Source: a virus
Reading direction: 5' to 3' (one strand)
DNA length: 64,000 nucleotides
IMG/VR virus record: IMGVR_UViG_3300031227_007858
Shown: one piece after another, positions 13,481 through 41,020 of the stretch
Layout of the letters: each line of letters begins with the position of its first letter
Numbering within the stretch: the stretch's first letter is position 1
Program-made: the position numbers and the translations under genes
The notes under the pieces: model-generated
Databases searched by the model: none
Seen by the model: the letters and a program-made list of their open reading frames with translations, nothing else
What the model was told of the DNA's origin: nothing

Positions 13481-13650
13481 TGTCACACTTTGCTAGATGG
13501 TGGTATGCTAATCAATCTGATAAAAAATATAAAACAATAATATGTAAAAAATGTAATAGACGTATTACGAAATATATGTTAACCGAAGATGGTTGTATTA
13601 ATTGTGATGTTAATTACCATCGTAAAAAAAGAGAGAAAAAAAATGATTAA
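13480..13650 (+). CDS. Zinc-ribbon mini-protein (56 aa)
   Basis: CKKCN...CINCD. ATG overlaps the upstream stop (TAATG). Not in the supplied ORF track because it is under 60 aa. Confidence 0.3.
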   Translation: MSHFARWWYANQSDKKYKTIICKKCNRRITKYMLTEDGCINCDVNYHRKKREKKND

Positions 13651-14368
13651 ACAAAGTTGTAAACTTGATATTGTAATTCCATCATTAGGAAGAAAAGTAA
13701 AATTGGAAAGATGTATAGAGTCTATTAGAAAAGCGAAGTTTCAACACGATGTGCACCTTTACCTATATTTCAGTATTAAAGAAGAATTAGATTATTTTAA
13801 AAAAACGACTAAAGATAAAGATTGGATAACATGTAAAACAGTAAAAAATTATCGAGTTCCTGATTTTTGGAACAAACATCTTAAAACAATGAAAGCAGAC
13901 GCTATGATGTATTTAAATGATGATATAATACTTTTTGGAGATACTATTACTAATGCATTAGAATATATGAGTAAAGTGTATCCTGATTATGATGGCGTTA
14001 TAGGAATAAATCAGTTTAATATACCTATCAATCAAATGGTTAAAACAGCGTTTGGGGTAATTGGTACAAAATTTGCTAATAGATTTCCAGATAGACAAGT
14101 TTTTTGTCCTGATTATGATAGATTTTTTGCTGATCAAGAATTATTTATATTCTCTGATAGAATACATAAATTTACTTTTTCTCATTTAGTAAGATTAGAA
14201 CATGACCATCCAGTATTTAATAAAAATGCTATAGACTCCACTCATCAAAATGTTAGGCAATATTTAACTAGTGATAAGACAGTTTTTCATAATAGAAGAA
14301 TGAAAAATTTAATTTGGGGGGTAGACTTCACATTAAACAAAAATTCCGATATTGAAGGAGATAAGTAA
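13643..14368 (+). CDS. Glycosyltransferase, GT2-like (GT-A fold)
   Basis: LDIVIPSLGR N-terminal segment and an NDDIIL DxD-type motif. Start reassigned to the internal ATG at 13643 (MIKQ...) because a small ORF occupies 13480..13650. Confidence 0.45.
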   Translation: MIKQSCKLDIVIPSLGRKVKLERCIESIRKAKFQHDVHLYLYFSIKEELDYFKKTTKDKDWITCKTVKNYRVPDFWNKHLKTMKADAMMYLNDDIILFGDTITNALEYMSKVYPDYDGVIGINQFNIPINQMVKTAFGVIGTKFANRFPDRQVFCPDYDRFFADQELFIFSDRIHKFTFSHLVRLEHDHPVFNKNAIDSTHQNVRQYLTSDKTVFHNRRMKNLIWGVDFTLNKNSDIEGDK

Positions 14369-15138
14369 TGGGTAAAACATTTTCACTTTTGTGCCCTACT
14401 AGGTCAAGAGATGTAGAAAGAGATAGGCTTTTAATGAGTCTACGAAATAACACTTCTAATAAAGACGAAATAGAGATTTTATTTGCTATTGATAGAGACG
14501 ATCATCATACTCAAGAAAAACTAGAAGAAACTAAAACAGTTTTTCCTGATTTGAATATCAAAGTTTTCGTCAGAAATAGAAGTGTTTTTATTAATAGGGA
14601 TTATTATAACTGGTTAGCAGGGTTTGCCGAAGGAGATTTTTATTGGGTGATAGGTGATGATTTAGTATTTGCTTTTAATGGCTGGGATGTATACATAAAA
14701 AATAGGATTGAAGATTATTTAAAAGATAAACATGATAGAATAGCTTGTATAGGTGCTAGAGATAACACTCCTCCACCAGGTACTTTACCTAGTTTTCCTT
14801 GTTTCCCAATGGTAACTAAAGAGGCTGCAAAAGCTTTAGGATTTGTTTTACATCCTAATATCCCTACTTGGGGAGCAGATTATGTTTTATATTGTTTATA
14901 TAAAGAAGTACCAAGATTGCTTGTAATTGATGAGCATATCTTTTTAAATCATATCAGTTATCATACTAGAAAAGTAGAAGCTGATGCTATCAATAAGAGA
15001 GTGGGAGAGATATTTAATTCTCTTAAAATGATACCAATGTACAATACTGACAGAACTGTTAAAGAAGAAGTACCACAACAAGTTAATTTTTTGAAGAATT
15101 ATATAGAAAAACGATTTAAATATCAAGAATTGGAGTAA
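14368..15138 (+). CDS. Glycosyltransferase-like protein (GT-A-like)
   Basis: SLLCPTRSR start and a VIGDDLVF DxD-like motif. Confidence 0.4.
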   Translation: MGKTFSLLCPTRSRDVERDRLLMSLRNNTSNKDEIEILFAIDRDDHHTQEKLEETKTVFPDLNIKVFVRNRSVFINRDYYNWLAGFAEGDFYWVIGDDLVFAFNGWDVYIKNRIEDYLKDKHDRIACIGARDNTPPPGTLPSFPCFPMVTKEAAKALGFVLHPNIPTWGADYVLYCLYKEVPRLLVIDEHIFLNHISYHTRKVEADAINKRVGEIFNSLKMIPMYNTDRTVKEEVPQQVNFLKNYIEKRFKYQELE

Positions 15139-15141
15139 ACT

Positions 15142-16281
15142 ATGAAAAATACGAAAGTAAAAGAGTGGGAGTCTTGGTTTAATTCTTTCAATTCAGCTAA
15201 AGGATTATTGTATGCCCCATGGTATCAGGCGATTAAAGAGTGGAAAGATGGTAAAAGATTAGCTCCTTTGCCACCTGTAGAAGCAAGCTTAGACCCTATT
15301 AATGTATGTAATTTGAATTGTTCCCACTGTAATGCATCTAGATACTTGTTACATCCACCTAAAGATAGAATGATTAGAATGCCAGATGAGCACTATTTAG
15401 AACTTGTTAAATTCTTAGGAAATTGGGGAGTAAAGGCAATTTGTCATGGAGGGGGAGGAGAACCTACTATGCATACTGCTTTAGGTGAAGCTATGATTAC
15501 TGCTCAAAAATATGGGATGGAGAATAGTATTGCTACTAATGGTATTAATTTTGATGAAGAGTTAATAGATATAGCAGTTAATACTTGTAGATGGGTAGGA
15601 GTATCAGTTGATTCAGCTACTCCTAAAACATATAAAATAGGTAGAAGTGCAGACCGTTTTAGTGATACTATAGGTAATATTGAGAAGCTATGTGATGCTG
15701 TAGATGAGTTTAAAACTAATTGCGATATTGCTTATAAATTTTTAGTGTTTGAATATAATCAAAATGAAATATATGAAGCTTGTAAGTTAGCTAAAGAATT
15801 AGGAGTAAAGGATTTTCATGCTAGACCTGCAGATTTAAGTCATCAAGGAATGGATGAACAATATAAAGGAACAGCTCAACCTTATAGTATAGACTTAGTT
15901 AAAGAACAGTTTGAGAAGTGTCATGACCTTGAAGATGATAATTTCCACGTATATACTATTGTTCATAAATTTGATGAGAACTTTATACCTCGCAAAGATT
16001 TTTCTCAATGTTATGCATCTCCTTGTTGTTTACAGATATGTCCTGATGGATCATTGTTTCTATGTCCAGACCAGAGATATAAAGATTTCTTTAAGTTAGG
16101 AGAACATTACCCTGATGTAACAGAGATAAAAAGAGTTTGGGGTAGTAGGAGACATTATGATTTAGTATTTAATAGTGGTAGAAAAGCTTGCAGTACTAGA
16201 TGTACATTTAATACTTATTGTAAACAAGCAGAAGAATTATTTATGAATGATAATGATCCTATGTGTAAAAACTTTATTTAG
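15142..16281 (+). CDS. Radical SAM enzyme with a SPASM/twitch-like C-terminal Cys cluster
   Basis: CNLNCSHC (CxxxCxxC) near the N-terminus. C-terminal CYASPCCLQICPDGSLFLCPD. Confidence 0.7.
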   Translation: MKNTKVKEWESWFNSFNSAKGLLYAPWYQAIKEWKDGKRLAPLPPVEASLDPINVCNLNCSHCNASRYLLHPPKDRMIRMPDEHYLELVKFLGNWGVKAICHGGGGEPTMHTALGEAMITAQKYGMENSIATNGINFDEELIDIAVNTCRWVGVSVDSATPKTYKIGRSADRFSDTIGNIEKLCDAVDEFKTNCDIAYKFLVFEYNQNEIYEACKLAKELGVKDFHARPADLSHQGMDEQYKGTAQPYSIDLVKEQFEKCHDLEDDNFHVYTIVHKFDENFIPRKDFSQCYASPCCLQICPDGSLFLCPDQRYKDFFKLGEHYPDVTEIKRVWGSRRHYDLVFNSGRKACSTRCTFNTYCKQAEELFMNDNDPMCKNFI

Positions 16282-16289
16282 GAGATATT

Positions 16290-16552: not shown

Positions 16553-16843
16553 ATGAAAGTATTTTATATAGACATAGACGGTACTTTAACAAATGCTCCA
16601 TTAGATAGATGGGGTAAAGTTTATCAAGATAGAATAGATAAAGTTAAAGAATTGTGCAAAAACAATACTGTAATTATTTGGAGTGCTGGTGGGTGGAAGT
16701 ATGCTATAAATTTTTGTGTGAAATATAACATAACTCCTACTGTTATACTACCAAAACCTGATTTTATTGTAGATGATACTCCAAGTATTAGAACAGTTGG
16801 AATAATAAAATATTTAAAGCCAGAGGATATAATAAAATTATGA
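16553..16843 (+). CDS. HAD-superfamily phosphatase-like small protein
   Basis: YIDIDGTLT (DxDGT motif I) and a later IVDDTP acidic motif. Confidence 0.45.
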   Translation: MKVFYIDIDGTLTNAPLDRWGKVYQDRIDKVKELCKNNTVIIWSAGGWKYAINFCVKYNITPTVILPKPDFIVDDTPSIRTVGIIKYLKPEDIIKL

Positions 16844-18072: not shown

Positions 18073-18089
18073 ATGGCTTGGGGAAGTCT
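18073..18089. repeat. Partner GC-rich hairpin (stem GGCTT/AAGTC, loop GGGG), complementary to the 17520 hairpin
   Basis: ATGGCTTGGGGAAGTC. GGCTTGGGGAAG is the exact reverse complement of CTTCCCCAAGCC at 17525..17536. Confidence 0.5.
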
Positions 18090-18107
18090 TTTTATAAAGG
18101 AGTAAAC

Positions 18108-18479
18108 ATGGAAAGAGATTGTGGCGATATAATTGATAGAGGGGCGATTGCACAGTTAAAGCATGAACGTATTGGTAACGATGAGAATAATAAAGAATAT
18201 AAAGCATTTAAACAAGAAATTGATTTAGTTATTTCTAAATATCCAGATATACCTATCTCAAAGTTTTTTAATTTATTAATAAAAATTAATGCTATGATAT
18301 GGGATTTAGAATCTGATTTAAGAAAAGGAAAATTGGATGGAGCTTTATCAGAAGTAGGTAGAAGAGCAATTGAAATTAGAAAACACAATAATTTAAGAGT
18401 ACAGGTAAAAAATATTGTGAATGAATTAACTAAAACAGGTTTCATTGACATAAAAAGTGACCATCTTTCGGAGAATTAA
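18108..18479 (+). CDS. Hypothetical protein
   Basis: AAGGAG RBS 6 nt before the ATG at 18108. The supplied ORF begins at a TTG at 18078. Confidence 0.4.
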   Translation: MERDCGDIIDRGAIAQLKHERIGNDENNKEYKAFKQEIDLVISKYPDIPISKFFNLLIKINAMIWDLESDLRKGKLDGALSEVGRRAIEIRKHNNLRVQVKNIVNELTKTGFIDIKSDHLSEN

Positions 18480-18481
18480 TA

Positions 18482-19033
18482 ATGACTACATTAGCGAGAC
18501 TTGAAGAGTTAAATAAAGAATATACAAGCATAGTTGGTACTGATTTTATTCAACAGCATTTGGAAGAAGTTGCACAAGTAGTTGACCATATAGGAGACAA
18601 GAAGTTTAGTTATTATGTAGATATAGGACTTGCTCGTGCAGGAAGTGTCTGGCTATATGCTAATACTGTATGTGAGTCAGGGGCAACTCTTTTAGGTATA
18701 GATGTTGTTGTAACAGTGGAAGCTTTAAAAGCTTTAAAAGTTTTAAAAGAAAGAGGTTTTACTATTGATACTATACAGAGACCAGCTATTAGATGTGTAG
18801 CTGATGTGAAAGATGACATTGAATTATTACATATAGATGCTCAACATAGCTATGCTGCTGTTAGTGAAGAGTATTGGGCTTATTCTAGAAAAGTTAAAGA
18901 TGGTGGCGTTGTTTTGTTACATGATACAATGCTACATGAAGGTTGTATTAAATTTAGAGAAGAATTAGAAAGAGAAGGTAAAAATATTAAAACTTTTGGA
19001 GACTCACTTGGAATCTCATTAATAAGAATATGA
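18482..19033 (+). CDS. Class I SAM-dependent methyltransferase (Methyltransf_24 / TylF-MycF / CmcI-like)
   Basis: LLHIDAQHSY ... GGVVLLHD matches the (L/F)IDxDHxY ... GG(I/V)xxxDD pattern of this family. Paralogs at 25525 and 33862. Confidence 0.5.
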   Translation: MTTLARLEELNKEYTSIVGTDFIQQHLEEVAQVVDHIGDKKFSYYVDIGLARAGSVWLYANTVCESGATLLGIDVVVTVEALKALKVLKERGFTIDTIQRPAIRCVADVKDDIELLHIDAQHSYAAVSEEYWAYSRKVKDGGVVLLHDTMLHEGCIKFREELEREGKNIKTFGDSLGISLIRI

Positions 19034-20106
19034 AAAAAGTAAGTTTTTTATTAACTAAAGAATTTTTATTGAAGGAATATATTTTAAACAAAAAATCTTT
19101 TAAGAAAATAGCTCAAGAATTAAATATTTCTTCATCAAGTATAAAAAGATATTTAATTTATCATGATATTAAAATAAGGAGTGTATCTGAATCTCTTAAA
19201 GGACATACTCCTTGGAATAAAAATAAAAAAATTGGAATAATTCCAAAATCTGCTTTTAAAAAAGGGAATATTCCTTGGAATAAAGATTTAACTAAAGAAA
19301 CAGATAAACGGGTATTTAAAAACGCCCAAAAAATTTCTAAAGCTCTTAAAGGGCAAACTTCTTCTCAAAAAGGTAGAATTTATGTTCCTAGAGAGATTCG
19401 CTATTGTGCTTGTGACTGTGGTCAGAATTTTGAATGTAGAATAACTGATACAAAGAGATATATAAAGAATCATCAACCAAGGAGAATGAATTTAAGGCCT
19501 CCTCAATATGCAATAGATAATTTAACAAAATATGTAAAAGAGAATATGAAAAATCATCCACTTTCAGAAGAACATAAGAAAAAAATAGGAGATAGTAATA
19601 GGGGTAAAAAACGTTCTGAAGCGGCAAGATTGAAAATGAGTAAATCAGCTAAAAATAAGAAAGTATCTGTGGAAACCAGAAATAAATTATCTTTGAGTTC
19701 TAAATTAATGTGGGCCAAAGAAGAAATAAGAAATAAAATTACAAAAGCTGTTTTAAAAGGATTAAAAATAAAACCTAATAAACCAGAAAAGCTATTAAAT
19801 AAATTATTACAACAAATATTACCAAAAGAATATAAATTTGTGGGAGATGGAAAAGTAATAATAAATGGTTTTAACCCTGATTTTGTGAATGTAAATGGTC
19901 AGAAAAAAATCATAGAGCTATATGGAGATTATTGGCATAACAGAAAAGAGGTTATAGAAAGAGATGGAAGACGATTAATTGCTTACAAAAAATATGGTTA
20001 TAAAACATTAATAATTTGGGAACATGAACTAAAGGATTTAGATAAAATTAAAAAAAGAATAATGGAGTTTAATAATGTCAAAAGTAATTTTAATAAAACC
20101 CAATGA
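19030..20106 (+). mobile_element. Freestanding homing endonuclease: NUMOD3-like repeats plus C-terminal Vsr-like nuclease
   Basis: G(N/H)IPWNK...K(A/G)LKG NUMOD3-like units. C-terminal KPNKPEKLLNKLL...NPDFVNVNGQKKIIELYGDYWH...YGYKTLIIWEHELKDL is near-identical to 4249 and 42193. Confidence 0.6.
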
Positions 20107-21313
20107 TATTTTACAATATCAAAATCTTAATCATTTAAAAGCCATTGAACCGCCCATGTGGTTAACGATTTTAGCAAATTATTTTAAATCGGAAAAAATT
20201 ATTGATATGTCTGCACTAAATTTATCTATTATAGAAACAATTGAACAAATAATACAATATAAACCAGATAAAGTAGTGTTATTGAGTACTGGAAACCATC
20301 CAAGTGCATACATACAGTCTAGGGCTCAAATAGAGCGTATAGGAGACATGTTACGAGCATTAAATATAGAAACTGATACTTTATACAGCTTACCAATTAA
20401 TCCTATGGATTATGAATCTCCTAGATGGGATTTATTAGATATGAGTAAATATAGGGCTCATAATTGGCACTGTTTTGGAGGGTTAAAAAGAAATAACTAT
20501 GGTGTTGTTTATAGTAGTGTAAGTTGTCCGATGAAATGTGAATTTTGCAACATTCATAATTTTTACATTACTCCTTATAAACAAAGAGATGTAAATGCAG
20601 TATTAAAAGATTTTCATGATTTATATAGTCAATATGGAATAACTAATTTTAAAATAATGGATGAGTTATTTGTAACTAAAGCTAAAAGAACTTACGAGAT
20701 ACTTGATGGACTTAAAGATATAGGTGATAAAATAAATATTTGGACTTATGCTCGTATAGATACTGTAGATGAGAAGTTATTAAAAGAGTTGAGAGCTGCT
20801 GGTATTAGATGGCTATCTTATGGTATTGAGACAGGTAATGATGAAATAAGAAAGAGTATAATGAAAGGACAGTTTACTAAAGATGACATTAAAGATATTG
20901 TGCAAATGACTAAAGATTGTGGAGTAAATATTATAGCTAATTATATGTTTGGATTTTGGGACGATAATTATAATACTATGAGAGAAACATTAGATTTTGC
21001 TAAAGATTTAAATTGTGAGTTTGCTAATTTTTATGCAACAGTAGCTTATCCTGGTAGCAAGTTTTTTGATGTAATGAAAGAGAGAGGAGTAGAGTTATCT
21101 GATGATTATAACGATTATGCTCAATTTAGTAAAAGTTTTAAACCATTACCAACAAAACACTTAACATCTCAAGAAGTATTGGAGTTTAGGGATAAAGCTT
21201 TTCAAGATTTTTTTACTTCTCCAAAATACTTGTCAATGATGAAACAAAAATTTGGTAATGGGGTTATTGATGAAATTAAACAAATGACAAAAATTAATAT
21301 AAAAAGAACATGA
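20075..21313 (+). CDS. Radical SAM enzyme with an N-terminal B12-binding-like domain (class B-like)
   Basis: CPMKCEFC (CxxxCxxC), preceded by about 150 aa with the Rossmann-like pattern of B12-binding radical SAM proteins. Confidence 0.65.
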   Translation: MSKVILIKPNDILQYQNLNHLKAIEPPMWLTILANYFKSEKIIDMSALNLSIIETIEQIIQYKPDKVVLLSTGNHPSAYIQSRAQIERIGDMLRALNIETDTLYSLPINPMDYESPRWDLLDMSKYRAHNWHCFGGLKRNNYGVVYSSVSCPMKCEFCNIHNFYITPYKQRDVNAVLKDFHDLYSQYGITNFKIMDELFVTKAKRTYEILDGLKDIGDKINIWTYARIDTVDEKLLKELRAAGIRWLSYGIETGNDEIRKSIMKGQFTKDDIKDIVQMTKDCGVNIIANYMFGFWDDNYNTMRETLDFAKDLNCEFANFYATVAYPGSKFFDVMKERGVELSDDYNDYAQFSKSFKPLPTKHLTSQEVLEFRDKAFQDFFTSPKYLSMMKQKFGNGVIDEIKQMTKINIKRT

Positions 21314-21840
21314 TAATATTAACACCAGAAATATTAATAAATGAAGGAATTAAAGAGACATTTAAGAGATTTGACGTTGCTATGATTTATTTAGTAATTG
21401 ATAGATATTTAAAAAATGAAGATAATCCATTTGAACTATATGGTAAATTACAGCATTTAAGAAACTCTAAAAATTTTGAAAAAAAATCAGAATGGGAATT
21501 AAATTTATCTCATGGAATTGATTGTATTAAACAGTATATTAAATTATTCAGTAGAGAAAAAAAATCTGTTAATTTAGTTAGAATGGATAGAATAGACACT
21601 GCTACTTTAACTAACCCCCCTATTCAAATATCCAGAAATCTGAGATTAGTAAATGGCTCTCATAGATTAGCAAATTTTTTATATTTTAAACATGGAGAAA
21701 TAGAAGCTAGAATGGATGGCAGTGAGGTACCTCCATCATTTGGATTTCAAATTAATTGGTTAGAAAAGTATTTTACTAAAGAAGAACAAGAACAAGTATT
21801 TAGTATAATAGAGAGAATAAAAAAAGATTATGGATTTTAA
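21310..21840 (+). CDS. Hypothetical protein
   Basis: No motif recognised. Confidence 0.35.
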   Translation: MIILTPEILINEGIKETFKRFDVAMIYLVIDRYLKNEDNPFELYGKLQHLRNSKNFEKKSEWELNLSHGIDCIKQYIKLFSREKKSVNLVRMDRIDTATLTNPPIQISRNLRLVNGSHRLANFLYFKHGEIEARMDGSEVPPSFGFQINWLEKYFTKEEQEQVFSIIERIKKDYGF

Positions 21841-22432
21841 AGAATATAGTAAATATAAGAGGTGTTTTGTTATAGGTAATGGTTCTAGTTTAAATGAAAT
21901 GAATTTAGATTTATTAAAAGATGAATTAACTATAGGATGTAATTTAATTTGTAAAAGTGGTTTTGTTCCAAAGTTTTTATGTGTATCTGATTCTGACAAT
22001 TTTAAAACGCAAGAAGAGTTTCTACCCTTTAATACTAATTTTGTGTTTGCTTCTCCACCATGTATAGTATCAGATGATATAAAATGTCGTAAAGTTGCAT
22101 TGAAACAGGAAGAATCTATGTTAGATGCTATAGAATTAGATAAAGATTTTAACAAAACATATTGGGCAAGAAATGTAATTATAGAGTTATGTATTCCATT
22201 AGCAAATTATCTTAATATCAAAGAAATATATTTAATTGGAATTGATGGGATTAAAAAAGATAACTATAGTCATTTTTATGATACTGTAATTTTACCAACT
22301 AATACTGATTTTGTACCTTATTATAATAAAATAAAAGAGTTGTATAATGGAACTATTTACGATTGTACTGTTGATGGTTATTTAACAATGTTTGAAAAAA
22401 GAGATTATTTAGAGGTACTAAATGGAAAATAA
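21830..22432 (+). CDS. Cst-II/Maf-like transferase (GT42 / DUF115-like), paralog 1
   Basis: N-terminal CFVIGNGSSL...LTIGCN resembles Cst-II MKKVIIAGNGPSL...FRCN. Later KEIYLIGIDGI resembles Cst-II KEIYLSGIDFY. Confidence 0.5.
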   Translation: MDFKEYSKYKRCFVIGNGSSLNEMNLDLLKDELTIGCNLICKSGFVPKFLCVSDSDNFKTQEEFLPFNTNFVFASPPCIVSDDIKCRKVALKQEESMLDAIELDKDFNKTYWARNVIIELCIPLANYLNIKEIYLIGIDGIKKDNYSHFYDTVILPTNTDFVPYYNKIKELYNGTIYDCTVDGYLTMFEKRDYLEVLNGK

Positions 22433-32239: not shown

Positions 32240-33014
32240 ATTAGAACAAATTAAACATAGAATTAATAAGAGGCCAATACTTATTTTATTACATGGTAAA
32301 TCTATTGCTGAGTTAGAAGATAATATAATACAGATGAAAGATTTGGATGTATGTTATTGTAGTATTAATTATTTTACATTATTGGAAGAACATATTTTAA
32401 ATCGTATAGATAGAAGATTAGATTTTGTATATGATAGTTCTTTTATTCCTGTTGAGTATAGACAAAACTTTGAGTGTAAGTATAGAATTCCTAGATTAAG
32501 AGGATTTTTAGATTCTTCTCCAGAAAAATTTTATGTTACTACTAAAGGTAGTTTGGAAAGAATGTGTTTAGATACTGGAAATGAAGAGTTTATTATTAAA
32601 TATGAAAATCAAATATTTTTAATAGATAATTTACCTTTTAATTTAAATGCTCCTAACTCGGCTATATTGCTTGTAGGACTGTGTATAGCATTTGAGATAT
32701 CTCTTATTGCTTTATTAGGTTTTGATGGATTTAAAGGTGTTGTACAAAATGATTTATTACACTCTTATTATAAATCTGAGTTGTATATTAAAAATCACAG
32801 ATATCCTAGTGTTGGAAATTTAGAACCATCGTTGTTATCTATTGAGACATTAAATATTGAAAGTAGAGGATTAGGTATAGTACAACAATATTGTAGAGAG
32901 TTAGGTGTTTTTATGCCAGAAATATATAATTGTTCACCTAGTACAATATATACAGGATTATTTGACATTATAAGTTATAAAACATTAATTAACAAATTAA
33001 AGGAGAAAAGATGA
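32232..33014 (+). CDS. Cst-II/Maf-like transferase (GT42 / DUF115-like), paralog 4
   Basis: ILILLHGKSIAELE...DVCYCSINYF and ILLVGLCIAFEISLIALLGFDGF. Confidence 0.4.
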   Translation: MLKLEQIKHRINKRPILILLHGKSIAELEDNIIQMKDLDVCYCSINYFTLLEEHILNRIDRRLDFVYDSSFIPVEYRQNFECKYRIPRLRGFLDSSPEKFYVTTKGSLERMCLDTGNEEFIIKYENQIFLIDNLPFNLNAPNSAILLVGLCIAFEISLIALLGFDGFKGVVQNDLLHSYYKSELYIKNHRYPSVGNLEPSLLSIETLNIESRGLGIVQQYCRELGVFMPEIYNCSPSTIYTGLFDIISYKTLINKLKEKR

Positions 33015-33865
33015 AAAAAGTAACAATTATAGCTGAAGTTGGTATCAACCATAATGGAGATATTAAAACAGCTAAAAGATTAATAGATGCTGCTAAATTT
33101 GCAGGTGCGAATTATGTAAAATTTCAAAAAAGAAATATTGATAGTGTATATACTCAAGAAGTTTTAAATGGACTTAGAGAGTCTCCTTGGGGCACTACTC
33201 AAAGAGAACAAAAAGCTGGATTGGAGTTTGGTAAAGAAGAGTATAGAATTATTGATGCATACTGTAAAGATAAAGATATACAGTGGTTTGCTAGCCCTTG
33301 GGATTTTATTAGTTTTAATTTTTTAGAAGAGTTTAAACCTCTAGTACAAAAGGTAGCATCTGCTTTATTAACTCATACTAAATTATTGACAGCCATGGCT
33401 GAGAGAAGAGTATTAACTTATATCTCTACAGGAATGTCTACTATGGTAGAAATAAATGCAGCTGTTACTATATTTGATAAATTGCAATGCCCTTTTATAG
33501 TATTACATTGTAATAGTAGCTATCCTATGGATAACAAAGATGCTAATCTATTAATGATTCCTAGATTGAAAGACTTATACAAAAATTTAACTTATTTTAA
33601 AGGGGTAGGATACTCTGGACATGAAGTAGGGTTGGACATAAGTATTGCAGCAGTAGCTTTAGGAGCAATAGTTATAGAAAGACATATTACTTTAGATAGA
33701 ACTATGTACGGTAGTGACCAAGCAGCTTCTGTAGAGCCTATGGGATTTTATAGACTAGTGAATTATATTAGGTCTATTGAAATTGCTTTAGGAGTACCTG
33801 AGAAGATAGTAACAGCTAAAGAGGAAGAATGTAAAAAGAAATTAAGACGGAGTTTGGACTTATGA
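33011..33865 (+). CDS. Nonulosonic acid (sialic / pseudaminic / legionaminic acid) synthase, NeuB family; lacks the C-terminal SAF domain
   Basis: MKKVTIIAEVGINHNGDIKTAKRLIDAAKFAGANYVKFQK is near-canonical for the NeuB/PseI/LegI N-terminus (IIAE.G.NHNGD...A..LI..A...GADAVKFQ). Confidence 0.75.
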   Translation: MKKVTIIAEVGINHNGDIKTAKRLIDAAKFAGANYVKFQKRNIDSVYTQEVLNGLRESPWGTTQREQKAGLEFGKEEYRIIDAYCKDKDIQWFASPWDFISFNFLEEFKPLVQKVASALLTHTKLLTAMAERRVLTYISTGMSTMVEINAAVTIFDKLQCPFIVLHCNSSYPMDNKDANLLMIPRLKDLYKNLTYFKGVGYSGHEVGLDISIAAVALGAIVIERHITLDRTMYGSDQAASVEPMGFYRLVNYIRSIEIALGVPEKIVTAKEEECKKKLRRSLDL

Positions 33866-34335
33866 GTAGTAGGGCAAATGCATTAATTCAATTAGCAAAG
33901 AAATGTAATTGTAATACTTATGCGGAGATAGGGTGCATGACAGGTAATACTGCAGTTAAATTACATAAGAAACATCCTCTCAGTGATGTTATTTTAGTAG
34001 ATATAATTAATAATAAATTGAGGAAAGATTTAGTGAGCAACTTACCATATAAATTTTATCATATACCATCTGTCGATGCTTCTGATAAGATTTTAGATAA
34101 CTCTATAGATTTATGTTTTATAGATGCTGACCATGGATATAAATATGTTTTAGCAGATATCAAAGCATGGTTACCTAAAGTAAAAGCAGATAAAATTATT
34201 TGTGGTCATGATTATAGTAAAACTCAACATCCTGGAGTTGTTAAAGCAGTACACGAAAGTTTTAAAGATGAAGAGATTAATTTAATTCCAGATTTAGATT
34301 ATAATGATGTTTATGTTTGGTGGGTACGAGTATAA
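33862..34335 (+). CDS. Class I SAM-dependent methyltransferase (Methyltransf_24-like), paralog
   Basis: YAEIGCMTGNTAV ... DLCFIDADHGYKYV ... KIICGHDY. Confidence 0.5.
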   Translation: MSSRANALIQLAKKCNCNTYAEIGCMTGNTAVKLHKKHPLSDVILVDIINNKLRKDLVSNLPYKFYHIPSVDASDKILDNSIDLCFIDADHGYKYVLADIKAWLPKVKADKIICGHDYSKTQHPGVVKAVHESFKDEEINLIPDLDYNDVYVWWVRV

Positions 34336-35504
34336 TCTAATGTTTCTTTTGTAGCATTAATCATATAATTAAAATCCTTAGCGGGCATCCACTCGTGGAA
34401 AGGAAATGACATCATATTATCAAAGAAGAGGTCTGTGTTGGGGCAATTAGCTTCACCATAACCTCTTTTTTTGAATAGTTCGTATCTATTTAAAGGATAA
34501 TATTGTACATTCATTTCTATTCCATATGTCTCTATTAACCTAGAGATTATATTATCTCTATTTCGCATACATTTTACAGGCATTAAATGATATGAAGATG
34601 AAATATTAAATGGTATTTTTTGAAATACTATGTCAGGATAGTTACTTAATGCTTCTTTAAAACTCCAAAACATAGATTCTCTATTAGAGTTTAATTCATC
34701 TATTCTATCAAGTAATAATATACCAACAAGTGCTTGTATTTCTGACATATTATATTTATAGGGTAAATCATTAGATACATCTGTAACATTAGTCATCGCT
34801 GGTTTCCAATATTTATCTTGATTTTCAAATGGTTTATTACCAAACATTCTCAATGGAGCTACTTTTTTAGCTAGTTCTTCATCTCTAACATATAAAGCAC
34901 CACCTTCACCTAAAGTAGTTAAATTCTTTTGAGCATGAAAACTAAATACTCCAAAATCACATAATACTCCAGCTTTTTTATTATTGTATTTAGCACCAAA
35001 TGATTGAGCTGCATCTTCTACTAATGGAATATCAAATTCTCTAAACTTATCTATATCACAAGGTATTCCATATAAATGTACTAATATAATAGCTTTTGTT
35101 TTATTAGTAATTTTCTTTTTTACATCTTCATACGACATTACCAAAGTATCAGGATCAATATCTGCCCAAACTAATTTAGCTCCCCTTCTAAGAAATGGTA
35201 TAGCTGTAGCACAAAATGTATGTGATGGTAATATTATTTCATCTCCTTCTTTAATTTCTAATAACTCAGCAGTTAGCTCTAAAGCAGATGTTCCACTATT
35301 AACAGCAAATATATCCCCTTGTTCAACATCTAAATAATCTTTTAATTTAGTTTCAAATGCATCTTTATATGCTCCTTGAGTTAGTGCTTCAGTACTTCTA
35401 AGAAAAGCATTAATAGTTTTTATTTCTTGTTCATTTAATAACACACTTCTAATTGACCAAGGTATTTTAAAGTTCATTTTTTCTCCTGTATTTTTAATAT
35501 CCAT
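34311..35504 (-). CDS. DegT/DnrJ/EryC1/StrS-family PLP-dependent sugar aminotransferase
   Basis: FAVNSGTSALELT, ILPSHTFCATA, VEDAAQSFGA and FSFHAQKNLTTLGEGG (Schiff-base Lys in SFHxxK). Confidence 0.8.
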   Translation of the reverse strand: MDIKNTGEKMNFKIPWSIRSVLLNEQEIKTINAFLRSTEALTQGAYKDAFETKLKDYLDVEQGDIFAVNSGTSALELTAELLEIKEGDEIILPSHTFCATAIPFLRRGAKLVWADIDPDTLVMSYEDVKKKITNKTKAIILVHLYGIPCDIDKFREFDIPLVEDAAQSFGAKYNNKKAGVLCDFGVFSFHAQKNLTTLGEGGALYVRDEELAKKVAPLRMFGNKPFENQDKYWKPAMTNVTDVSNDLPYKYNMSEIQALVGILLLDRIDELNSNRESMFWSFKEALSNYPDIVFQKIPFNISSSYHLMPVKCMRNRDNIISRLIETYGIEMNVQYYPLNRYELFKKRGYGEANCPNTDLFFDNMMSFPFHEWMPAKDFNYMINATKETLDYTRTHQT

Positions 35505-38206: not shown

Positions 38207-38285
38207 TGGCAGGGGTAGAAAGAATCGAACTTTCCCAATGAGATTTGGAATCTCATTCGCCTTTATCCTTGGAACATGTACCCCC
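38207..38285 (-). tRNA. tRNA-Trp (anticodon CCA) candidate, 79 nt, with an irregular D-arm
   Basis: Minus strand reads GGGGGTA...[AC stem (A)TGAGA / loop TTCCAAA / TCTCA(T)]...T-arm GAAAG-TTCGATT-CTTTC, acceptor TACCCCT, G, CCA. U33 and A37 are present. The D-stem pairs poorly. Confidence 0.5.
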
Positions 38286-39644
38286 AAGTAATTTTGTAAA
38301 ATTTGTATAATAATGCTCTAAACTAGGAGCATTATCTTTTAAAATACTTTTATAAAAGGATATCTCAGGATAGAACCTATCTTCTATTAAACCTTCATTT
38401 ATACACACATTTCTTATCTTGGTACCATAGTATGGAGCCAGTATAGCAAGCCCTACGCTGTCTGGTTGGCACTTTTTTAAGAAACTAATAGTATCACCTA
38501 GGTTAGCATCGTTTTCATCAGGAAATCCCATCATAATGTTTGCTGTAGTCCTTATTCCTATTTTTTTACAGTTTTTAAAAGCCTGTATGTAAGTCTCGTT
38601 TTTAATAGGTTTATTGAGCATAGTTTTCCTAAACCACTCATTCCCTACTTCTACACCGATAGAGATAGTATCACAATTACTATCTTTTAAAGCTTGTAAT
38701 TTACTCATATCAAGTAAACTATCTGCTCTTGTTTGTATAAAGAATGGCAGATTAATTCTTTTATAACCCTTTATAAACTTTTTAAATCTATCTCTGCTCA
38801 TTGTTAAAAAGTTCTCATCATGAAACCAGATTAATTCTAGATTATGCCAACTAGTCAATAAACTAATTTCCAATAATGAATCCATAATATCTTTTTCTCT
38901 ACGATATTTACCACAATCTTTAAATAACTCTTGATATGTAGAATTAACACAAAAACTACATTGATGAGGACATCCTCTACTCATCTCAAAACACCCTGTT
39001 CTCCACATTTTACCTCTATAAGGTTTTAGCAAATGTCTCTCATCAAATACTTCCCAATTTTGATAAGTAAAAGGTTTCCAATCATAAAAATCAGTTTGTA
39101 AATTAACTGTTATTTTTTTATTACCATTTTTAATAGCCAATCCTTTTATCTTTTTAATACTATCTCCAGACTCTAATTTATTAGCTAATTCTACAATAGC
39201 TCTTTCTCCTTCTCCACCACATAAAATATCTACATTTTTATCTTGAATAAAAAACTGTGGGGCTACTGTTGGAAATATACCTCCTACAATTATAGGTATA
39301 TTAAAGTATCTTTTTATGTGAGACATTAATTTTTTAGCTAAAGTATAATTGTTCTCTACAATAGATACTCCTACTAATTTAGGATTGAAATCTTTTATTA
39401 TATTACATAATTCTTGATATACATCTTTTTTATCTTTACTCCATATACTTTCAGCTTCAGTGTGTTGTACTAATCCTAACTTTTCTCTTTCTTTATGGTC
39501 AATGTAAGATTTTTCCATCATAAATGTAGTATCAAATATTTTTACATCATGTCTAGCATCTCTTAATACTCCTGCAAGTACACTTAATCCGAGAGGTATC
39601 ATTGGATAAGATTCTTTATTTGGATAAACTAATAATATGTTCAT
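38253..39644 (-). CDS. B12-binding radical SAM enzyme (class B-like)
   Basis: N-terminal MNILLVYPNKESYPMIPLGLSVLAGVLRDARHDVKIFD (B12-binding-like domain) plus MSRGCPHQCSFC (CxxxCxxC). The 3' end overlaps the tRNA-Trp candidate by about 33 nt. Confidence 0.7.
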   Translation of the reverse strand: MNILLVYPNKESYPMIPLGLSVLAGVLRDARHDVKIFDTTFMMEKSYIDHKEREKLGLVQHTEAESIWSKDKKDVYQELCNIIKDFNPKLVGVSIVENNYTLAKKLMSHIKRYFNIPIIVGGIFPTVAPQFFIQDKNVDILCGGEGERAIVELANKLESGDSIKKIKGLAIKNGNKKITVNLQTDFYDWKPFTYQNWEVFDERHLLKPYRGKMWRTGCFEMSRGCPHQCSFCVNSTYQELFKDCGKYRREKDIMDSLLEISLLTSWHNLELIWFHDENFLTMSRDRFKKFIKGYKRINLPFFIQTRADSLLDMSKLQALKDSNCDTISIGVEVGNEWFRKTMLNKPIKNETYIQAFKNCKKIGIRTTANIMMGFPDENDANLGDTISFLKKCQPDSVGLAILAPYYGTKIRNVCINEGLIEDRFYPEISFYKSILKDNAPSLEHYYTNFTKLLGGTCSKDKGE

Positions 39645-39980
39645 TTATTTTATTTTTTTATAATCTTGACAATTGTATCGTTTACATATTTCTGGTCTTT
39701 TATCATATATTTTACAAGAGTAATCTCCTTTTTTATATGACAAATATTTACAAGTTAAAGGAATACTTAAAGCTAAATACTCTTTACCATCTTGTCTAGT
39801 TATTATAGGATCACATCTATGATAAGATAACCAATTAGCTCTATCCATTAAAATCTCTCTATTCTCATCTGTAATTTCCCACAGATTTAAAAAAGCATCT
39901 ACACAGCACTTACCACATCTTTTACAAGAATTATTTGTTATTTCTTTTTCCGATTGTTTTGTAGTCTTTGACTTTTTCAC
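39645..39980 (-). CDS. YkgJ/UPF0153-like CxxCxxCC putative Fe/Zn-binding protein
   Basis: CKRCGKCC, then distal CKY...C...CKRY Cys residues. Start abuts the radical SAM gene's stop (39644/39645). Confidence 0.4.
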   Translation of the reverse strand: MKKSKTTKQSEKEITNNSCKRCGKCCVDAFLNLWEITDENREILMDRANWLSYHRCDPIITRQDGKEYLALSIPLTCKYLSYKKGDYSCKIYDKRPEICKRYNCQDYKKIK

Positions 39981-39989
39981 TATAACTCC

Positions 39990-40265
39990 TTAGTTAAATA
40001 ATATTCTTTTACAAAACTTATAAATCTCTTTAGTTGTATATTTATAATAATAACCTTTAACTATATGCATTGGTATTAAACTTATGCTATACCAGCGTTG
40101 TTTTACTATTCGATACCAAAATCTTTGTAGAAAACTATCTTCTTTCATTAATCTATTTTCATAAAGATAAGAAAAAATAGATAGTATATCGAATATGTTA
40201 TATATATCTCCTACAAAAGGATTTATTACTAACTCTATATGATTTCTTCCTTGTTTTGTTCTCAT
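39990..40265 (-). CDS. Hypothetical protein
   Basis: ORF with no recognised motif. Confidence 0.3.
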   Translation of the reverse strand: MRTKQGRNHIELVINPFVGDIYNIFDILSIFSYLYENRLMKEDSFLQRFWYRIVKQRWYSISLIPMHIVKGYYYKYTTKEIYKFCKRILFN

Positions 40266-40324
40266 TTAATCTCTAAATAAAAATATCAAAGCCCATACAA
40301 TCATAATTATAATTAATAATATCT

Positions 40325-41020
40325 TCACAATATCTCCTGTTTCATAAATGTTCTACATATTTCTAATGTTTCCTTGTCATCTATTTCAAATCCTCTAGCT
40401 AGAGGCATTTCATAAAGTACTATTTTACCACCTAACCTATTATTATACTTTTGTAATATTTCTGGTTTAAATATGTAAATTGAACCATTATCAAAGAAAT
40501 TATGGTCTGTTACTTGTCTAGGTTTTCTATTATCTAAATCATGTCCTAAAGGAGTAAATGAACCATCTTCATGTTTAGTCCAAGCACATAAATGAAAGAA
40601 AGGACTAACTGACATTAAACTATCAGCTTCTTCTTTAATAATCATTTTTAAAGCATTATCAATATCACTTGTTAATCTTACTGGAGAAGTACATTGTAAA
40701 AACACTACATAATCTATAGGGCAATACCAATCATAATCTTTTTTTATTGTTTTTATAGCATGTTTAATAGCATCTTCAGATGAAGCAGTATCAGTAGATA
40801 GTTCATCGGGTCTCTTAATAACCCTTGCTCCAGCATGTTCCGATGCAATTGTAATATCTTTCATATCATCAGTAGATATAAAAACACCATTAATATATTT
40901 ACTTTTATGTGCTTGCTCTATACTCCAAGTAATTAAGGGTTTACCACAGAAATCTATAACATTTTTTCCTGGTAACCCTTTACTTCCTCCACGAGCTGGT
41001 ATTATGCATATTATATTCAT
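40325..41020 (-). CDS. CMP-nonulosonate / CMP-KDO-type cytidylyltransferase (NeuA/PseF/LegF/KdsB family)
   Basis: MNIICIIPARGGSKGLPGKNVIDFCGKPLITWSIEQA...GVFISTDD is near-canonical for the family. Confidence 0.75.
   Translation of the reverse strand: MNIICIIPARGGSKGLPGKNVIDFCGKPLITWSIEQAHKSKYINGVFISTDDMKDITIASEHAGARVIKRPDELSTDTASSEDAIKHAIKTIKKDYDWYCPIDYVVFLQCTSPVRLTSDIDNALKMIIKEEADSLMSVSPFFHLCAWTKHEDGSFTPLGHDLDNRKPRQVTDHNFFDNGSIYIFKPEILQKYNNRLGGKIVLYEMPLARGFEIDDKETLEICRTFMKQEIL

Follow-up and report, generated by a model that had tools for sequence, protein, structure and literature searches.

What is a phage doing with a set of genes for a sialic-acid-like sugar? In an uncultured tailed phage, some 40 genes beside the tail genes appear capable of directing the synthesis, decoration and attachment of such a sugar. 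This island extends from approximately 13.6 to 56 kb of the window (the whole 64,000-nucleotide stretch of IMG/VR record IMGVR_UViG_3300031227_007858 that was analysed), with SAM and sulfate support genes reaching 64 kb. ORFs are designated here by their first coordinate and related contigs by L numbers. A family was considered confirmed at the Pfam gathering score and a specific function at the NCBIfam equivalog cut-off. The phage origin given in an earlier note on this DNA is confirmed by a tape-measure/tail module, YopX paralogs, homing endonucleases and relatives in IMG/VR. The observations in that note largely hold and are partly confirmed: the enzyme families stand but the set of five paralogous transferases does not. 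Similarly, the family assignments bear out its set for synthesis, activation and transfer of a sialic-acid-like (2-keto-3-deoxy) sugar, but neither the canonical pseudaminic/legionaminic/neuraminic pathway nor the single paralog set that it envisaged.

The first step would be condensation of PEP with an aldose or aldose-phosphate, giving a 3-deoxy-2-ulosonic acid, by the NeuB homolog (33011..33865, plus strand, 284 aa). Pfam places this protein firmly in the NeuB family, as claimed (PF03102, 217 bits, cut-off 22), and its SGH and ERH motifs line up with SDH and EKH of the nearest solved structure, 6ncs (290 aa, 3e-46). A SAF domain was not found in it, and its scores against the equivalog models NeuB_NnaB (233 bits, cut-off 400) and PseI (176 bits, cut-off 340) are low. 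The same applies to the sugar aminotransferase (34311..35504, minus strand), a PLP enzyme whose proposed DegT family is correct (PF01041, 291 bits) and which gives 233 bits with PseC (cut-off 423) and 161 bits with LegC (cut-off 420). A DegT gene also adjoins NeuB in L010.

A NeuA-like enzyme would then form the CMP-sugar. Both predicted NeuA/KdsB-type cytidylyltransferases exceed the gathering score of CTP_transf_3 (PF02348). One (40325..41020, minus strand, 88 bits) is of the NeuA CMP-ulosonic acid synthetase type, its nearest solved structure being the CMP-Neu5Ac synthetase 6ifd (2e-31); homologs adjoin NeuB in L001 and are separated from it by one small ORF in L002. The other (23078..23728, plus strand, 61 bits) is a divergent CMP-sugar synthetase-type enzyme, closest to NeuA 9ftb (2e-11) and, with PseF, at 81 bits, under the 206 cut-off. 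It follows an RraA-like protein of the class II pyruvate aldolase family (22422..23081, plus strand; PF03737, 85 bits), for which LigK/HMG-aldolase-type NCBIfam matches are sub-threshold. From its place between 21830 and 23078, this is a candidate second 2-keto-3-deoxy-acid synthase. A second triad (aldolase 22422, cytidylyltransferase 23078 and transferases 21830 and 23704) may be responsible for synthesis and transfer of another keto-deoxy acid.

Which sugar would be made? The canonical pseudaminic, legionaminic or neuraminic pathway was considered and rejected: three of its six steps are missing, the NeuB protein is SAF-less and every equivalog cut-off was failed, NeuB, DegT and the CMP-transferase all falling far short. 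The pathway had already been described as incomplete. This is confirmed over all scanned ORFs, none of which encodes a 4,6-dehydratase, N-acetyltransferase or UDP-sugar hydrolase/epimerase. In addition, these pathways do not include the mini-TPP pair, the HpnJ/AprD4-like radical-SAM enzyme or the DUF6165-like protein, which form the lineage-conserved core of the island. The sugar is probably something other than pseudaminic, legionaminic or N-acetylneuraminic acid.

The terminal phosphate of the condensation product may be removed by a mini-HAD phosphatase, a step that would resemble the routes to Kdn and, in animals, to Neu5Ac, and one that would explain why dehydratase, acetyltransferase and hydrolase are not needed. 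Two mini-HAD-like ORFs account for the HAD phosphatases noted earlier. The first (16553..16843, plus strand, 96 aa) has DIDGT as its motif I, DD as a C-terminal motif and no Pfam match; the second (46287..46598, minus strand) has the motifs DIDNT, TARG and IDDK and a weak PGP_phosphatase match (15.9 bits), the only Pfam support for the pair. Their small size (about 97 aa) and this dependence on motifs and one weak match weigh against the proposal. Homologs of 46287 occur immediately downstream of NeuB in L010, a Kyanoviridae virus (46% identity), and near NeuB in L009, a 484-kb phage (40%). This co-occurrence in two other phages hints at a phospho-sugar route, for which there is a precedent (PMC6200933).

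Transfer of the sugar from CMP would fall to the sialyltransferase-fold proteins. Among the five supposed Cst-II/Maf-like paralogs, only three are truly paralogous (mutual blastp 1e-26 to 1e-45), all on the plus strand: 23704..24390 (1e-26 to 1e-35 against the other two), 31472..32239 and 32232..33014 (6e-45 against 31472). They have no Pfam match and constitute a new family with, from the model of 31472, a predicted sialyltransferase/Maf/MptE-like fold. Low Foldseek TM-scores in this comparison (0.31-0.40) count against the proposal. So does the lack, in the 31472 family, of a conserved histidine after the G-x-D-G motif, where Cst-II has its catalytic His188. In its favour, proteins of this family found elsewhere carry fused polysaccharide pyruvyl transferase, methyltransferase, GT1-like and TPR domains.

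The remaining two are sub-threshold or motif-level relatives. One, 21830..22432 (plus strand), is an MptE-like/DUF115 (Maf-type) protein and a probable glycosyltransferase: it matches PF01973 over profile positions 19-165 of 171 (E 3.5e-6; 27.3 bits, below the 34.6 cut-off), carries GNGSS and IGIDG motifs collinear with Cst-II and aligns weakly with the paralog family over its full length (hhalign probability 51%, E 1.6e-4). The other, 44710..45327 (minus strand), is possibly a GT29/GT42-like sialyltransferase. Its PF00777 (GT29) match spans only 35 residues (21.2 bits, cut-off 23), although two close homologs have precomputed PF00777 matches and its own motif matches are collinear with Cst-II; the AF2 model has no usable fold (pLDDT 37). 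The huge phage LR756508 has a homolog at a distance of 2 kb from NeuB. Placement of the five in GT42/DUF115 by HMM thus failed, none reaching the GT42, GT29 or DUF115 thresholds, a further point against the proposal. Their number, described as exceptional for one genome, is unusual among phages but not when bacteria are included: Campylobacter jejuni has seven maf genes.

Glycosyltransferases of GT-A type are also present, two above the Pfam cut-off and four more at sub-threshold or motif level. Of the GT2-like enzymes reported previously, 30069..31475 (plus strand, 468 aa) is secure (PF00535, 30 bits, cut-off 23.3), and its homolog in L002-L004 is directly upstream of the sialyltransferase-fold genes. 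The others are motif-level only: 13589..14368 (plus strand, also cited as 13643) reaches 17.8 bits with PF00535, below the cut-off, while 14368..15138 (plus strand) and 53908..54486 (minus strand) have no Pfam match. Homologs of 13589 (40-44% identity) occur in L001, L012 and L013 in unchanged order, and the L001 homolog of 14368 (55%) matches PF00535 faintly. A Nucleotid_trans-type enzyme (53294..53926, minus strand; PF03407, 23 bits, cut-off 22) and the GT-A-like 48382..49248 (minus strand, no Pfam match) complete the set. Homologs of 48382 are found in L002 (66% identical) and, in L012 and L013, next to the sialyltransferase-fold gene.

Radical-SAM, methyl, TPP (for a two-carbon branch) and sulfate enzymes would tailor the sugars. 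The radical-SAM enzymes are a viperin/MoaA/SPASM-like protein (15142..16281, plus strand; PF04055, 81.6 bits, all NCBIfam matches sub-threshold; homologs of 43-61% identity in L001, L012 and L013); an HpnJ/AprD4/B12-rSAM-like protein (20075..21313, plus strand; PF04055, 54 bits; HpnJ 109 and AprD4 75 bits, both sub-threshold), with homologs in L001, L002, L013 and L014 (40-51%) and, over only 270/412 aa, in L012 (48%); a B12-binding enzyme (38253..39644, minus strand; PF02310, 63 bits; PF04055, 67 bits), probably of the C-methyltransferase class; and a radical-SAM/SPASM enzyme (46880..47671, minus strand; SPASM 49, Radical_SAM 27 bits). The expected four or more methyltransferases are all above the gathering score on the plus strand: three of Methyltransf_24 (18482..19033, 35 bits; 25525..26166, 55 bits; 33862..34335, 38 bits) and one of Methyltransf_11 (24906..25574, 45 bits).

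The mini-TPP enzyme is split between a 195-aa E1-alpha-like PP-domain subunit (26163..26750, plus strand; PF00676, 57 bits), with the TPP motif GD...EDNG conserved, and a 172-aa Pyr-domain subunit (28763..29281, plus strand; PF02779, 37 bits). Both have homologs in L001, L002, L012 and L013 (52-60% and 49-54% identity, respectively), and proteins of 190-210 aa homologous to 26163 number at least 2720. In favour of the island proposal, the mini-TPP pair also occurs in polysaccharide clusters, flanked by sugar SDR enzymes, in L051 and L052, two long contigs of unestablished origin that carry Wzx-family flippases. Sulfate would be supplied by an APS kinase, which makes PAPS (27577..28116, plus strand; PF01583, 187 bits), and transferred by a sulfotransferase represented by the C-terminal half of its domain (63396..63995, minus strand; Sulfotransfer_3 54, Sulfotransfer_1 41 bits). 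SAM would come from a MetK with a probable intein (59849..61897, minus strand; S-AdoMet_synt_N, M and C 110, 151 and 191 bits): its C domain is in two stretches, LAGLIDADG_3 scores 19.7 bits and tblastn aligns it to phage MetKs in two pieces. A PNP_UDP_1, MTA/SAH-nucleosidase-like enzyme (28113..28766, plus strand; PF01048, 120 bits) would clear radical-SAM and methyltransferase by-products. The minus strand also encodes an ACP (55670..55900; PP-binding, 44 bits) and the RmlD-like reductase (54985..55665; PF04321, RmlD_sub_bind, 51.5 bits) and VOC/glyoxalase-fold protein (45454..45873; PF00903, 53 bits; homolog in L001) recognised earlier, both above the Pfam gathering score. The four radical-SAM enzymes, split mini-TPP enzyme, APS kinase and sulfotransferase had not been noted before, nor had the RraA-like aldolase, ACP, nucleosidase and intein-bearing MetK.

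Several viral contigs share the core module. NeuB, CMP-transferase and sialyltransferase-fold genes are adjacent in the independent phage contigs L001 and L002-L004. The IMG/VR contigs L012 and L013 repeat the order GT-A, GT-A, rSAM, DUF6165, rSAM, TPP-alpha, TPP-beta and, further on, sialyltransferase-fold; against the proposal, NeuB was not seen in the parts of these two examined, despite the sialyltransferase-fold gene. The most conserved gene encodes the DUF6165-like protein (18078..18479, plus strand; PF19662, 20 bits), with homologs of 59-68% identity in L001, L002, L012 and L013; it occurs at 34 IMG/VR loci compared with one locus in 185,579 species genomes. A conserved protein without a Pfam match (24391..24909, plus strand) is 74% identical in L002-L004.

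What would receive the glycan? The host envelope is a possible target. In the phage, the island enzymes are all soluble, no ORF of the window has two or more hydrophobic segments (no polytopic membrane protein), and flippase, polymerase and polyprenyl-phosphate transferase are absent from every Pfam scan. This lack of export genes, together with gene position, makes a tail-fibre target plausible: tape-measure, tail and fibre genes directly precede the island on the same strand. The putative tail-fibre/receptor-binding genes 6850, 8619, 9294, 10955, 11510 and 11860 (6850..13125, plus strand) are downstream of a PhageMin_Tail tape measure (just outside the window), a 277-aa ORF and a 1095-aa ORF, and have no PHROG or Pfam match. 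Their description as Ser/Thr-rich applies to the four larger ORFs (18-24% Ser+Thr) but not to the short 10955 (14.5%) and 11510 (12.0%). In L001, homologs of 11860 and 6850 adjoin the module.

Phage DNA is another possible target. Approximately half of the island lies in the convergent minus-strand block amid YopX, nuclease and nucleotide-metabolism genes, which speaks against the virion proposal; late co-expression with the tail genes should consequently not be assumed. Judged from the sequence, the acceptor is nevertheless most likely a phage structural protein, for example the Ser/Thr-rich tail fibres, which would be glycosylated in the cytoplasm ahead of assembly. As a precedent, phage glycosyltransferases have been reported to glycosylate virions (Freeman et al. 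2023, cited in PMC12619734).

With slightly more confidence than doubt, we regard this region as a self-contained cytoplasmic island that would produce tailored CMP-ulosonic acid glycans, with virion proteins as their most plausible destination. Phage-borne ulosonic-acid toolkits of this kind are rare among phages.

The window is phage DNA. It is AT-rich (approximately 28% GC) and contains a single strand switch near 34.3 kb, with genes on the plus strand to 34335 and on the minus strand after this point (ORFs cited by a single number are designated by their start position). A metagenome contig overlapping the left end carries a PhageMin_Tail tape-measure protein (1068 aa) which precedes ORF 122-955 (+). 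The gene order therefore reads as a tail module: tape measure, a 277-aa protein, a 1095-aa protein and then fibre-like ORFs. The 1095-aa protein gave no match in a tblastn search against phages. Since PHROGs and Pfam matched no structural family among the ORFs in 122-13125, the label 'tail fibre' rests on position and composition. The earlier note described the fibre-like ORFs (6850-13125) as Ser/Thr-rich and this is indeed the case (18-24% Ser+Thr for the four larger ones).

The tail module has several other features. ORF 122-955 includes many copies of a repeat of approximately 13-15 aa ('KNLVSRIT...'), which at the DNA level is a 45-nt tandem repeat (784-904), and ORF 8619-9290 (+) opens with the same NLVSR motif. 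This may be an attachment or adaptor motif common to tail proteins. Polyamine synthesis by the phage is suggested by two further ORFs inside the module, at 5802-6853 (+): one is SpeD-like (sub-threshold, AdoMet_dc 21.9 bits) and the other spermidine-synthase-like (Spermine_synth, 95.8 bits). An 80-aa ORF (13238-13480 (+)), after the fibre-like genes and before the first glycosyltransferase, has a hydrophobic N-terminus followed by Cys24, and its product may be a lipoprotein.

The minus-strand block includes five YopX-domain paralogs (43290-44421, 45866-46297 and 54479-54988, all (-), three in tandem), HNH/NUMOD3 endonucleases, a ClpP-like protease, a dCMP deaminase (57421-57999, identified with Pfam) and a SAM synthetase. 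Homing-endonuclease-like ORFs (NUMOD3, DUF559, HNH) occur on both strands (4249-5145 (+), 19030-20106 (+), 42193-42909 (-), 58269-58742 (-) and 62340-62795 (-)), one of them within the glycan module between methyltransferase 18482 and the radical-SAM gene 20075. ARAGORN predicts a tRNA-Trp (CCA) at 38207-38285 (-), overlapping the 3' end of the B12-radical-SAM ORF 38253-39644 by approximately 33 nt. A promoter and terminator scan performed no better than on shuffled sequence. Genes identical to those of the window are present in several ENA and JGI metagenomes, and related modules are found on IMG/VR viral contigs of 12-109 kb. A DNA-level search of deposited phages with the segment 30000-36000 gave no match.

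The genes for glycan biosynthesis and transfer (approximately 13.6-56 kb, with support genes out to 64 kb) form a real and unusual phage island. Its approximately 40 genes would make and transfer a heavily tailored glycan containing an ulosonic acid, and they include a new sialyltransferase-fold family. The family assignments of the earlier note, made without database searches, are mostly right. The NeuB-type synthase (33011-33865) is placed in its family by PF03102 with 217 bits (cut-off 22.1) over profile positions 1-239 of 241. Its ...YSGHE... and ...IERHI... segments align with ...YSDHS... and ...IEKHY... of the solved homolog 6ncs (alignment only); we take these SxH and ExH His motifs to be the metal-binding site of NeuB-family synthases. 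Both proposed cytidylyltransferases match PF02348 (CTP_transf_3; 88 bits for 40325-41020 (-) and 61 bits for 23078-23728, cut-off 22.6) and the DegT aminotransferase (34311-35504 (-)) matches PF01041 with 291 bits. The GT2 enzyme 30069 (30 bits) holds, as do, above Pfam thresholds, methyltransferases 18482, 24906, 25525 and 33862, RmlD_sub_bind 54985 and Glyoxalase/VOC 45454. The other GT2 calls (13643, 14368 and 53908) are sub-threshold or supported by motifs only. NeuB homologs occur in just 3 of 50,697 deposited phage records and an IMG/VR search with NeuB 33011 alone found nothing. No account of a nonulosonic acid pathway encoded by a phage emerged from full-text literature searches.

The pathway itself is a different matter. 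The earlier note recognised pseudaminic/legionaminic/neuraminic logic, and this did not withstand comparison with the equivalog models, where every score is about half its cut-off. NeuB 33011 reaches 233 bits for N-acetylneuraminate synthase (TIGR03569, cut-off 400) and 176 for pseudaminic acid synthase (TIGR03586, cut-off 340). The NeuB/LegI-type model thus gives it a higher score than PseI does, and the match stops at position 280 of 329 in the model. With 284 aa, the protein is without the C-terminal SAF domain; 6ncs, its best solved relative, is equally short. The best NCBIfam score of both cytidylyltransferases is with PseF (117 bits for 40325 and 81 for 23078, against a cut-off of 206). 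The best model for DegT 34311 is PseC (233 versus 423.5; LegC, 161 versus 420), and from these scores it would be a DegT-family member whose specificity the equivalog models do not fix. No Pfam family corresponding to a 4,6-dehydratase (PseB/LegB), an N-acetyltransferase (PseH/LegH) or a hydrolase/2-epimerase (PseG/LegG/NeuC) was found in any scanned ORF of the window (essentially all ORFs of at least 100 aa and many of 80-99 aa). Judged by its sequences, the island is a non-canonical pathway and not one of the recognised Pse/Leg/Neu type.

The view of the earlier note was that the pathway is a canonical Pse/Leg one whose dehydratase, acetyltransferase and hydrolase-epimerase come from the host or from outside the window. 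The preference of DegT for PseC and of both cytidylyltransferases for PseF would agree with this. In addition, the window is only part of a genome (contigs of this phage reach approximately 74 kb and related ones 107-109 kb). We nevertheless consider it unlikely, given the equivalog scores and the SAF-less, NeuB/LegI-leaning synthase. Moreover, the related modules do not retain DegT, having an Aminotran_3 gene nearby instead, and a HAD phosphatase travelling with NeuB suits a phospho-sugar substrate, which the Pse/Leg pathways do not use.

The HAD phosphatases that the earlier note listed are tiny ORFs (16553 and 46287; about 97-103 aa) with DxDxT motifs, and only 46287 (103 aa) adds a Pfam match, a weak one (PGP_phosphatase, 15.9 bits). 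A homolog of 46287 (46% identical) lies directly downstream of NeuB, with DegT upstream, in a Kyanoviridae single-virus genome, and another (40% identical) near NeuB in the 484-kb huge phage LR756508. The former is a compact DegT - NeuB - mini-HAD trio (18889-21127 of MH319754.1, from a marine cyanophage family); in LR756508.1, NeuB occurs together with 44710-like, mini-HAD, cytidylyltransferase and methyltransferase genes. Unrelated phages therefore have smaller forms of the toolkit. Both the Kdn route of Bacteroides and the animal sialic acid route start from a central sugar phosphate (PMC6200933). The pairing of NeuB with a phosphatase would fit a phospho-sugar route of this kind, which would need none of the 'missing' steps, and its recurrence across three phage lineages hints at a short route from central metabolites to CMP-ulosonic acids. 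Bacteroides thetaiotaomicron makes Kdn with BT1713-BT1715; like animals, whose route passes through Neu5Ac-9-P, it relies on a synthase, a HAD phosphatase and a CMP-synthetase and needs no nucleotide-sugar precursor steps (PMC6200933). The phage arrangement is similar in that a HAD-like gene accompanies NeuB in all three lineages. It differs in that the phage HADs are of approximately 97 aa and supported by motifs, and in having an aminotransferase and tailoring enzymes, which imply a product other than plain Kdn.

We have analysed the five ORFs proposed in the earlier note as Cst-II/Maf-like paralogs using profile searches and structure prediction. None passes a GT42, GT29 or DUF115 cut-off. 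Three of them (23704, 31472 and 32232) are true paralogs (33-35% identity, E 1e-26 to 1e-45), while 21830 and 44710 are not. The guess concerning their fold was right for these three, but they belong to a distinct family. They have no Pfam hit, and a PDB sequence search with the paralog profile gave none with E <0.05 (best 0.05). The family is rare: a word-indexed search of 5.8 billion proteins gave 22 hits and a profile search retrieved 533 cluster representatives among 1.84 billion, while tblastn with 31472 against phages gave no match. The AlphaFold model of 31472, obtained with the 22-sequence alignment, is confident (pLDDT 92.5, pTM 0.91) and the modelled family has the GT-A-variant sialyltransferase fold. 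Foldseek agrees on this fold, with low TM-scores (0.31-0.40). The nearest viral structures in BFVD, from uncultured Caudovirales and a choanoflagellate giant virus, are annotated as MptE-like, DUF115 or GT29. The alignment shows conserved residues H20, G21, S23, R84, N230 and S232, and the N-terminal conserved motif is HGxS versus GNGxS in Cst-II. The catalytic general base of Cst-II is His188, downstream of its GxDFY motif. In the 22-sequence family alignment there is no invariant or near-invariant His after G162-x-D164-G165, the positional equivalence with Cst-II not being structurally fixed. ORFs 23704, 31472 and 32232 are a separate new family, with a sialyltransferase fold predicted by the model.

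ORF 21830 shows a weak profile match to this family. Its sole Pfam match is to PF01973 (MAF_flag10/DUF115/MptE-like), nearly full length and below the cut-off (27.3 bits versus 34.6, E 3.5e-6). This match, together with the HGxS motif, could be taken to mean that 21830 and the three paralogs act in a small-molecule pathway (for example, for a cofactor or modified nucleotide), as MptE-like (pyro)phosphokinases or nucleotide-binding enzymes and not as glycosyltransferases. Such a function appears very improbable. Maf and Cst-I give longer structural alignments (176-179 residues) than MptE does (154), the genes are consistently located beside NeuB and the CMP-transferase, and no pterin or folate genes are nearby. 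Furthermore, the family elsewhere includes fusion proteins with polysaccharide pyruvyl-transferase, methyltransferase, GT1-like and TPR domains, and the fusions to glycan-enzyme domains point to glycan work.

ORF 44710 matches PF00777 (GT29) over 35 residues with 21.2 bits (cut-off 23). Its AF2 model, built with four close homologs, is unusable (pLDDT 37), and hhalign with the paralog family matched the GxDxY motif alone (probability 1%). A PDB sequence search gave no hit for 44710 or 21830. Motif-level collinearity with Cst-II (whose sequence was checked against 1ro7) has E 0.007-0.07 in a one-sequence search. A homolog of 44710 is located 2 kb from the NeuB gene in LR756508.

The island also includes components that the earlier note did not list: radical-SAM enzymes, an RraA-like protein, a mini-TPP enzyme, an APS kinase with a sulfotransferase, a PNP_UDP_1 nucleosidase, an ACP and a SAM synthetase. 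There are four radical-SAM enzymes (15142; 20075, HpnJ/AprD4-like; 38253, B12-binding; and 46880, SPASM). With at least four methyltransferases, these constitute a SAM-hungry programme into which the SAM synthetase and a PNP_UDP_1 nucleosidase (28113) fit. The SAM synthetase (MetK, 59849-61897 (-)) has an insert of approximately 330 aa within its C-terminal domain with a weak LAGLIDADG_3 hit, and tblastn matches to other phage MetKs fall in two pieces; the insert is probably an intein. An RraA-like protein of the pyruvate-aldolase family (22422) lies between 21830 and the pair formed by cytidylyltransferase 23078 and paralog 23704. Together, 22422, 23078 and 21830/23704 might constitute a second synthase-activase-transferase line. 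An APS kinase (27577-28116 (+), 187 bits) and a sulfotransferase domain (63396-63995 (-), an ORF at the end of the window that has only the C-terminal half of this domain) imply, from the domain matches, a phage-supplied capacity for PAPS and sulfation, of which we know no described phage example. A second sulfotransferase was considered for 29281 (with a P-loop-like motif, FPRGGTHYV) and dropped, the PDB sequence search having given nothing usable.

A mini two-subunit TPP enzyme is encoded by 26163-26750 (195 aa) and 28763-29281 (172 aa), both (+). Its alpha subunit family is large and tight (at least 2720 hits of 190-210 aa), and to our knowledge no member of this two-subunit family has been characterised. 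On two long contigs with polysaccharide clusters (L051 and L052) the pair is located between sugar SDR epimerase/dehydratases, and the clusters also include B12-rSAM, SPASM-rSAM and methyltransferase genes. The first of these additionally has DegT aminotransferases and Wzx-family flippases. Because the pair occurs in these sugar clusters, it is plausibly a sugar-tailoring enzyme which adds a two-carbon unit. Possible counterparts are the E1-like TPP enzymes of branched-sugar and C2-unit pathways (AviB1/AviB2; transketolase-like E1 plus ACP systems), whose separate PP- and Pyr-domain subunits are likewise associated with sugar-tailoring genes. Compared with these, the phage subunits are minimal; an ACP is also present in the window (55670-55900 (-), 77 aa, PP-binding 44 bits), adjoining the RmlD-like gene. 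The ACP and the TPP enzyme may serve an unusual N-acyl or C2-unit transfer. A phosphonate reading of the TPP, cytidylyltransferase and B12-rSAM genes (PEP mutase/phosphonopyruvate decarboxylase/Fom3-like) was ruled out: there is no PEP mutase, and the TPP subunits belong to the E1/transketolase families, with a weak generic match to TPP_enzyme_C (22 bits) and none to TPP_enzyme_N.

A tblastn comparison of all window ORFs with the related contigs defines a conserved core: the DUF6165-like gene, radical-SAM 20075, methyltransferase 24906, TPP-alpha, TPP-beta and one to three sialyltransferase-fold genes, together with NeuB and a NeuA-like enzyme in the phage contigs L001 and L002-L004. Two IMG/VR loci (L012 and L013) have the order GT-A, GT-A, rSAM, DUF6165, rSAM, TPP-alpha, TPP-beta ... 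GT-A-like, sialyltransferase-fold. Within the module, conservation is highest for the gene of the DUF6165-like protein (18078-18479 (+), 59-68% identity), found at 34 IMG/VR loci compared with one contig among 185,579 species genomes. This single contig is from a Woesearchaeota MAG and may itself be viral. At most of the other viral DUF6165 loci (L012-L045) the remainder of the module is absent.

What does the glycan decorate? A hydrophobicity scan found no ORF in the window with two or more transmembrane-like segments, and Pfam scans of the window found no flippase, polymerase, ligase or polyprenyl-phosphate transferase. These predictions suggest that the chemistry of the island is cytoplasmic. 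Its plus-strand half comes directly after the fibre genes, and L001 retains fibre homologs beside its module. Virion glycosylation has a precedent in mycobacteriophages (Freeman et al. 2023, as cited in PMC12619734). The adjacency to the fibre genes, the lack of export genes and this precedent together argue, with moderate weight, for virion proteins as the likeliest acceptor. In those systems (cited in PMC12619734), phage glycosyltransferases and methyltransferases with genes near the structural ones modify virion proteins in the cytoplasm. They need few enzymes, of the GT2 type, and draw on nucleotide sugars of the host. The island, by contrast, has approximately 40 genes with a predicted full pathway for the synthesis of an acidic ulosonic sugar, and would glycosylate virion proteins.

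Remodelling of the host envelope is also conceivable, if rather doubtful. The CMP- or nucleotide-activated sugars would be added to host LPS, capsule, S-layer or flagellin during infection via host export and ligation, with superinfection exclusion or the avoidance of progeny losses on debris as the effect. The nearest fold relatives do act on LOS (Cst-I) and flagellin (Maf), the mini-TPP pair is found in the Wzx-type polysaccharide clusters of L051 and L052, the alteration of capsular pseudaminic acid by prophage enzymes is documented (PMC12053666), and the minus-strand block, with its probable early/middle genes, contains half of the island. The absence from the window of export and ligation genes and of any polytopic membrane protein does not favour this, nor does the fact that no integrase or lysogeny genes were seen in it, and eleven candidate transferases are many for the mere editing of a host glycan.

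The clusters for DNA hypermodification described by Pyle et al. (bioRxiv 10.1101/2023.12.21.572611) resemble the island in combining glycosyltransferases with sugar-activating and -tailoring enzymes. These phage enzymes are reported to place diverse glycans on 5hmC, and one product was assigned as a Kdo adduct. The window has a dCMP deaminase (57421-57999) and a viperin-like radical-SAM gene, the latter a co-occurrence which the same study noted. The sugars, including the ulosonic acid, might be attached to hydroxymethylated pyrimidines of the phage DNA for restriction evasion. This we judge quite improbable: such pathways are usually clustered (bioRxiv 10.1101/2023.12.21.572611), beside C5-methyltransferase/5mYOX or ThyS-like genes, but no thymidylate-synthase-like hydroxymethylase, C5-methyltransferase or 5mYOX/TET was found among the scanned ORFs of the 64-kb window. 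In addition, the DNA glycosyltransferases of that study are of the GT-A (JGT-like) or GT-B type and not of the sialyltransferase fold.

Among the closest known systems are those in which bacteria transfer nonulosonic acids with Maf (PF01973/DUF115) or GT42 (Cst-I/Cst-II) enzymes, such as the Campylobacter flagellin and LOS sialylation loci. Unlike these, the island is phage-encoded, is without dehydratase, acetyltransferase and hydrolase, and has a NeuB without SAF. Its transferases are a family without a Pfam model, with HGxS for GNGxS and no conserved His after GxDG, and it adds radical-SAM, TPP and sulfation enzymes.

The most far-reaching reading of the island is one that we hold with well under even confidence: an uncultured tailed-phage lineage would build a heavily tailored, acidic ulosonic glycan (C- and O-methylated, possibly also two-carbon-branched and sulfated) entirely with its own soluble enzymes and attach it to tail fibres or capsid using a previously unrecognised sialyltransferase-fold family, with its own SAM synthetase, nucleosidase and PAPS supply. 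The island brings to light three enzyme families, so far uncharacterised, that lend themselves to in vitro work: the sialyltransferase-fold family (approximately 530 cluster representatives, without a Pfam model), the very common mini two-subunit TPP enzymes and the DUF6165-like proteins, which are mainly from viral contigs. The suggested short route with NeuB and a mini-HAD might find use in glyco-engineering. On cells, sugars of the sialic-acid type are classic factors in recognition and immune evasion. If the far-reaching reading is true, the phage would have a 'sialylated', negatively charged virion surface. A phage that itself makes and transfers such a sugar would extend the glyco-engineering of virion or host surfaces to a new chemical class.
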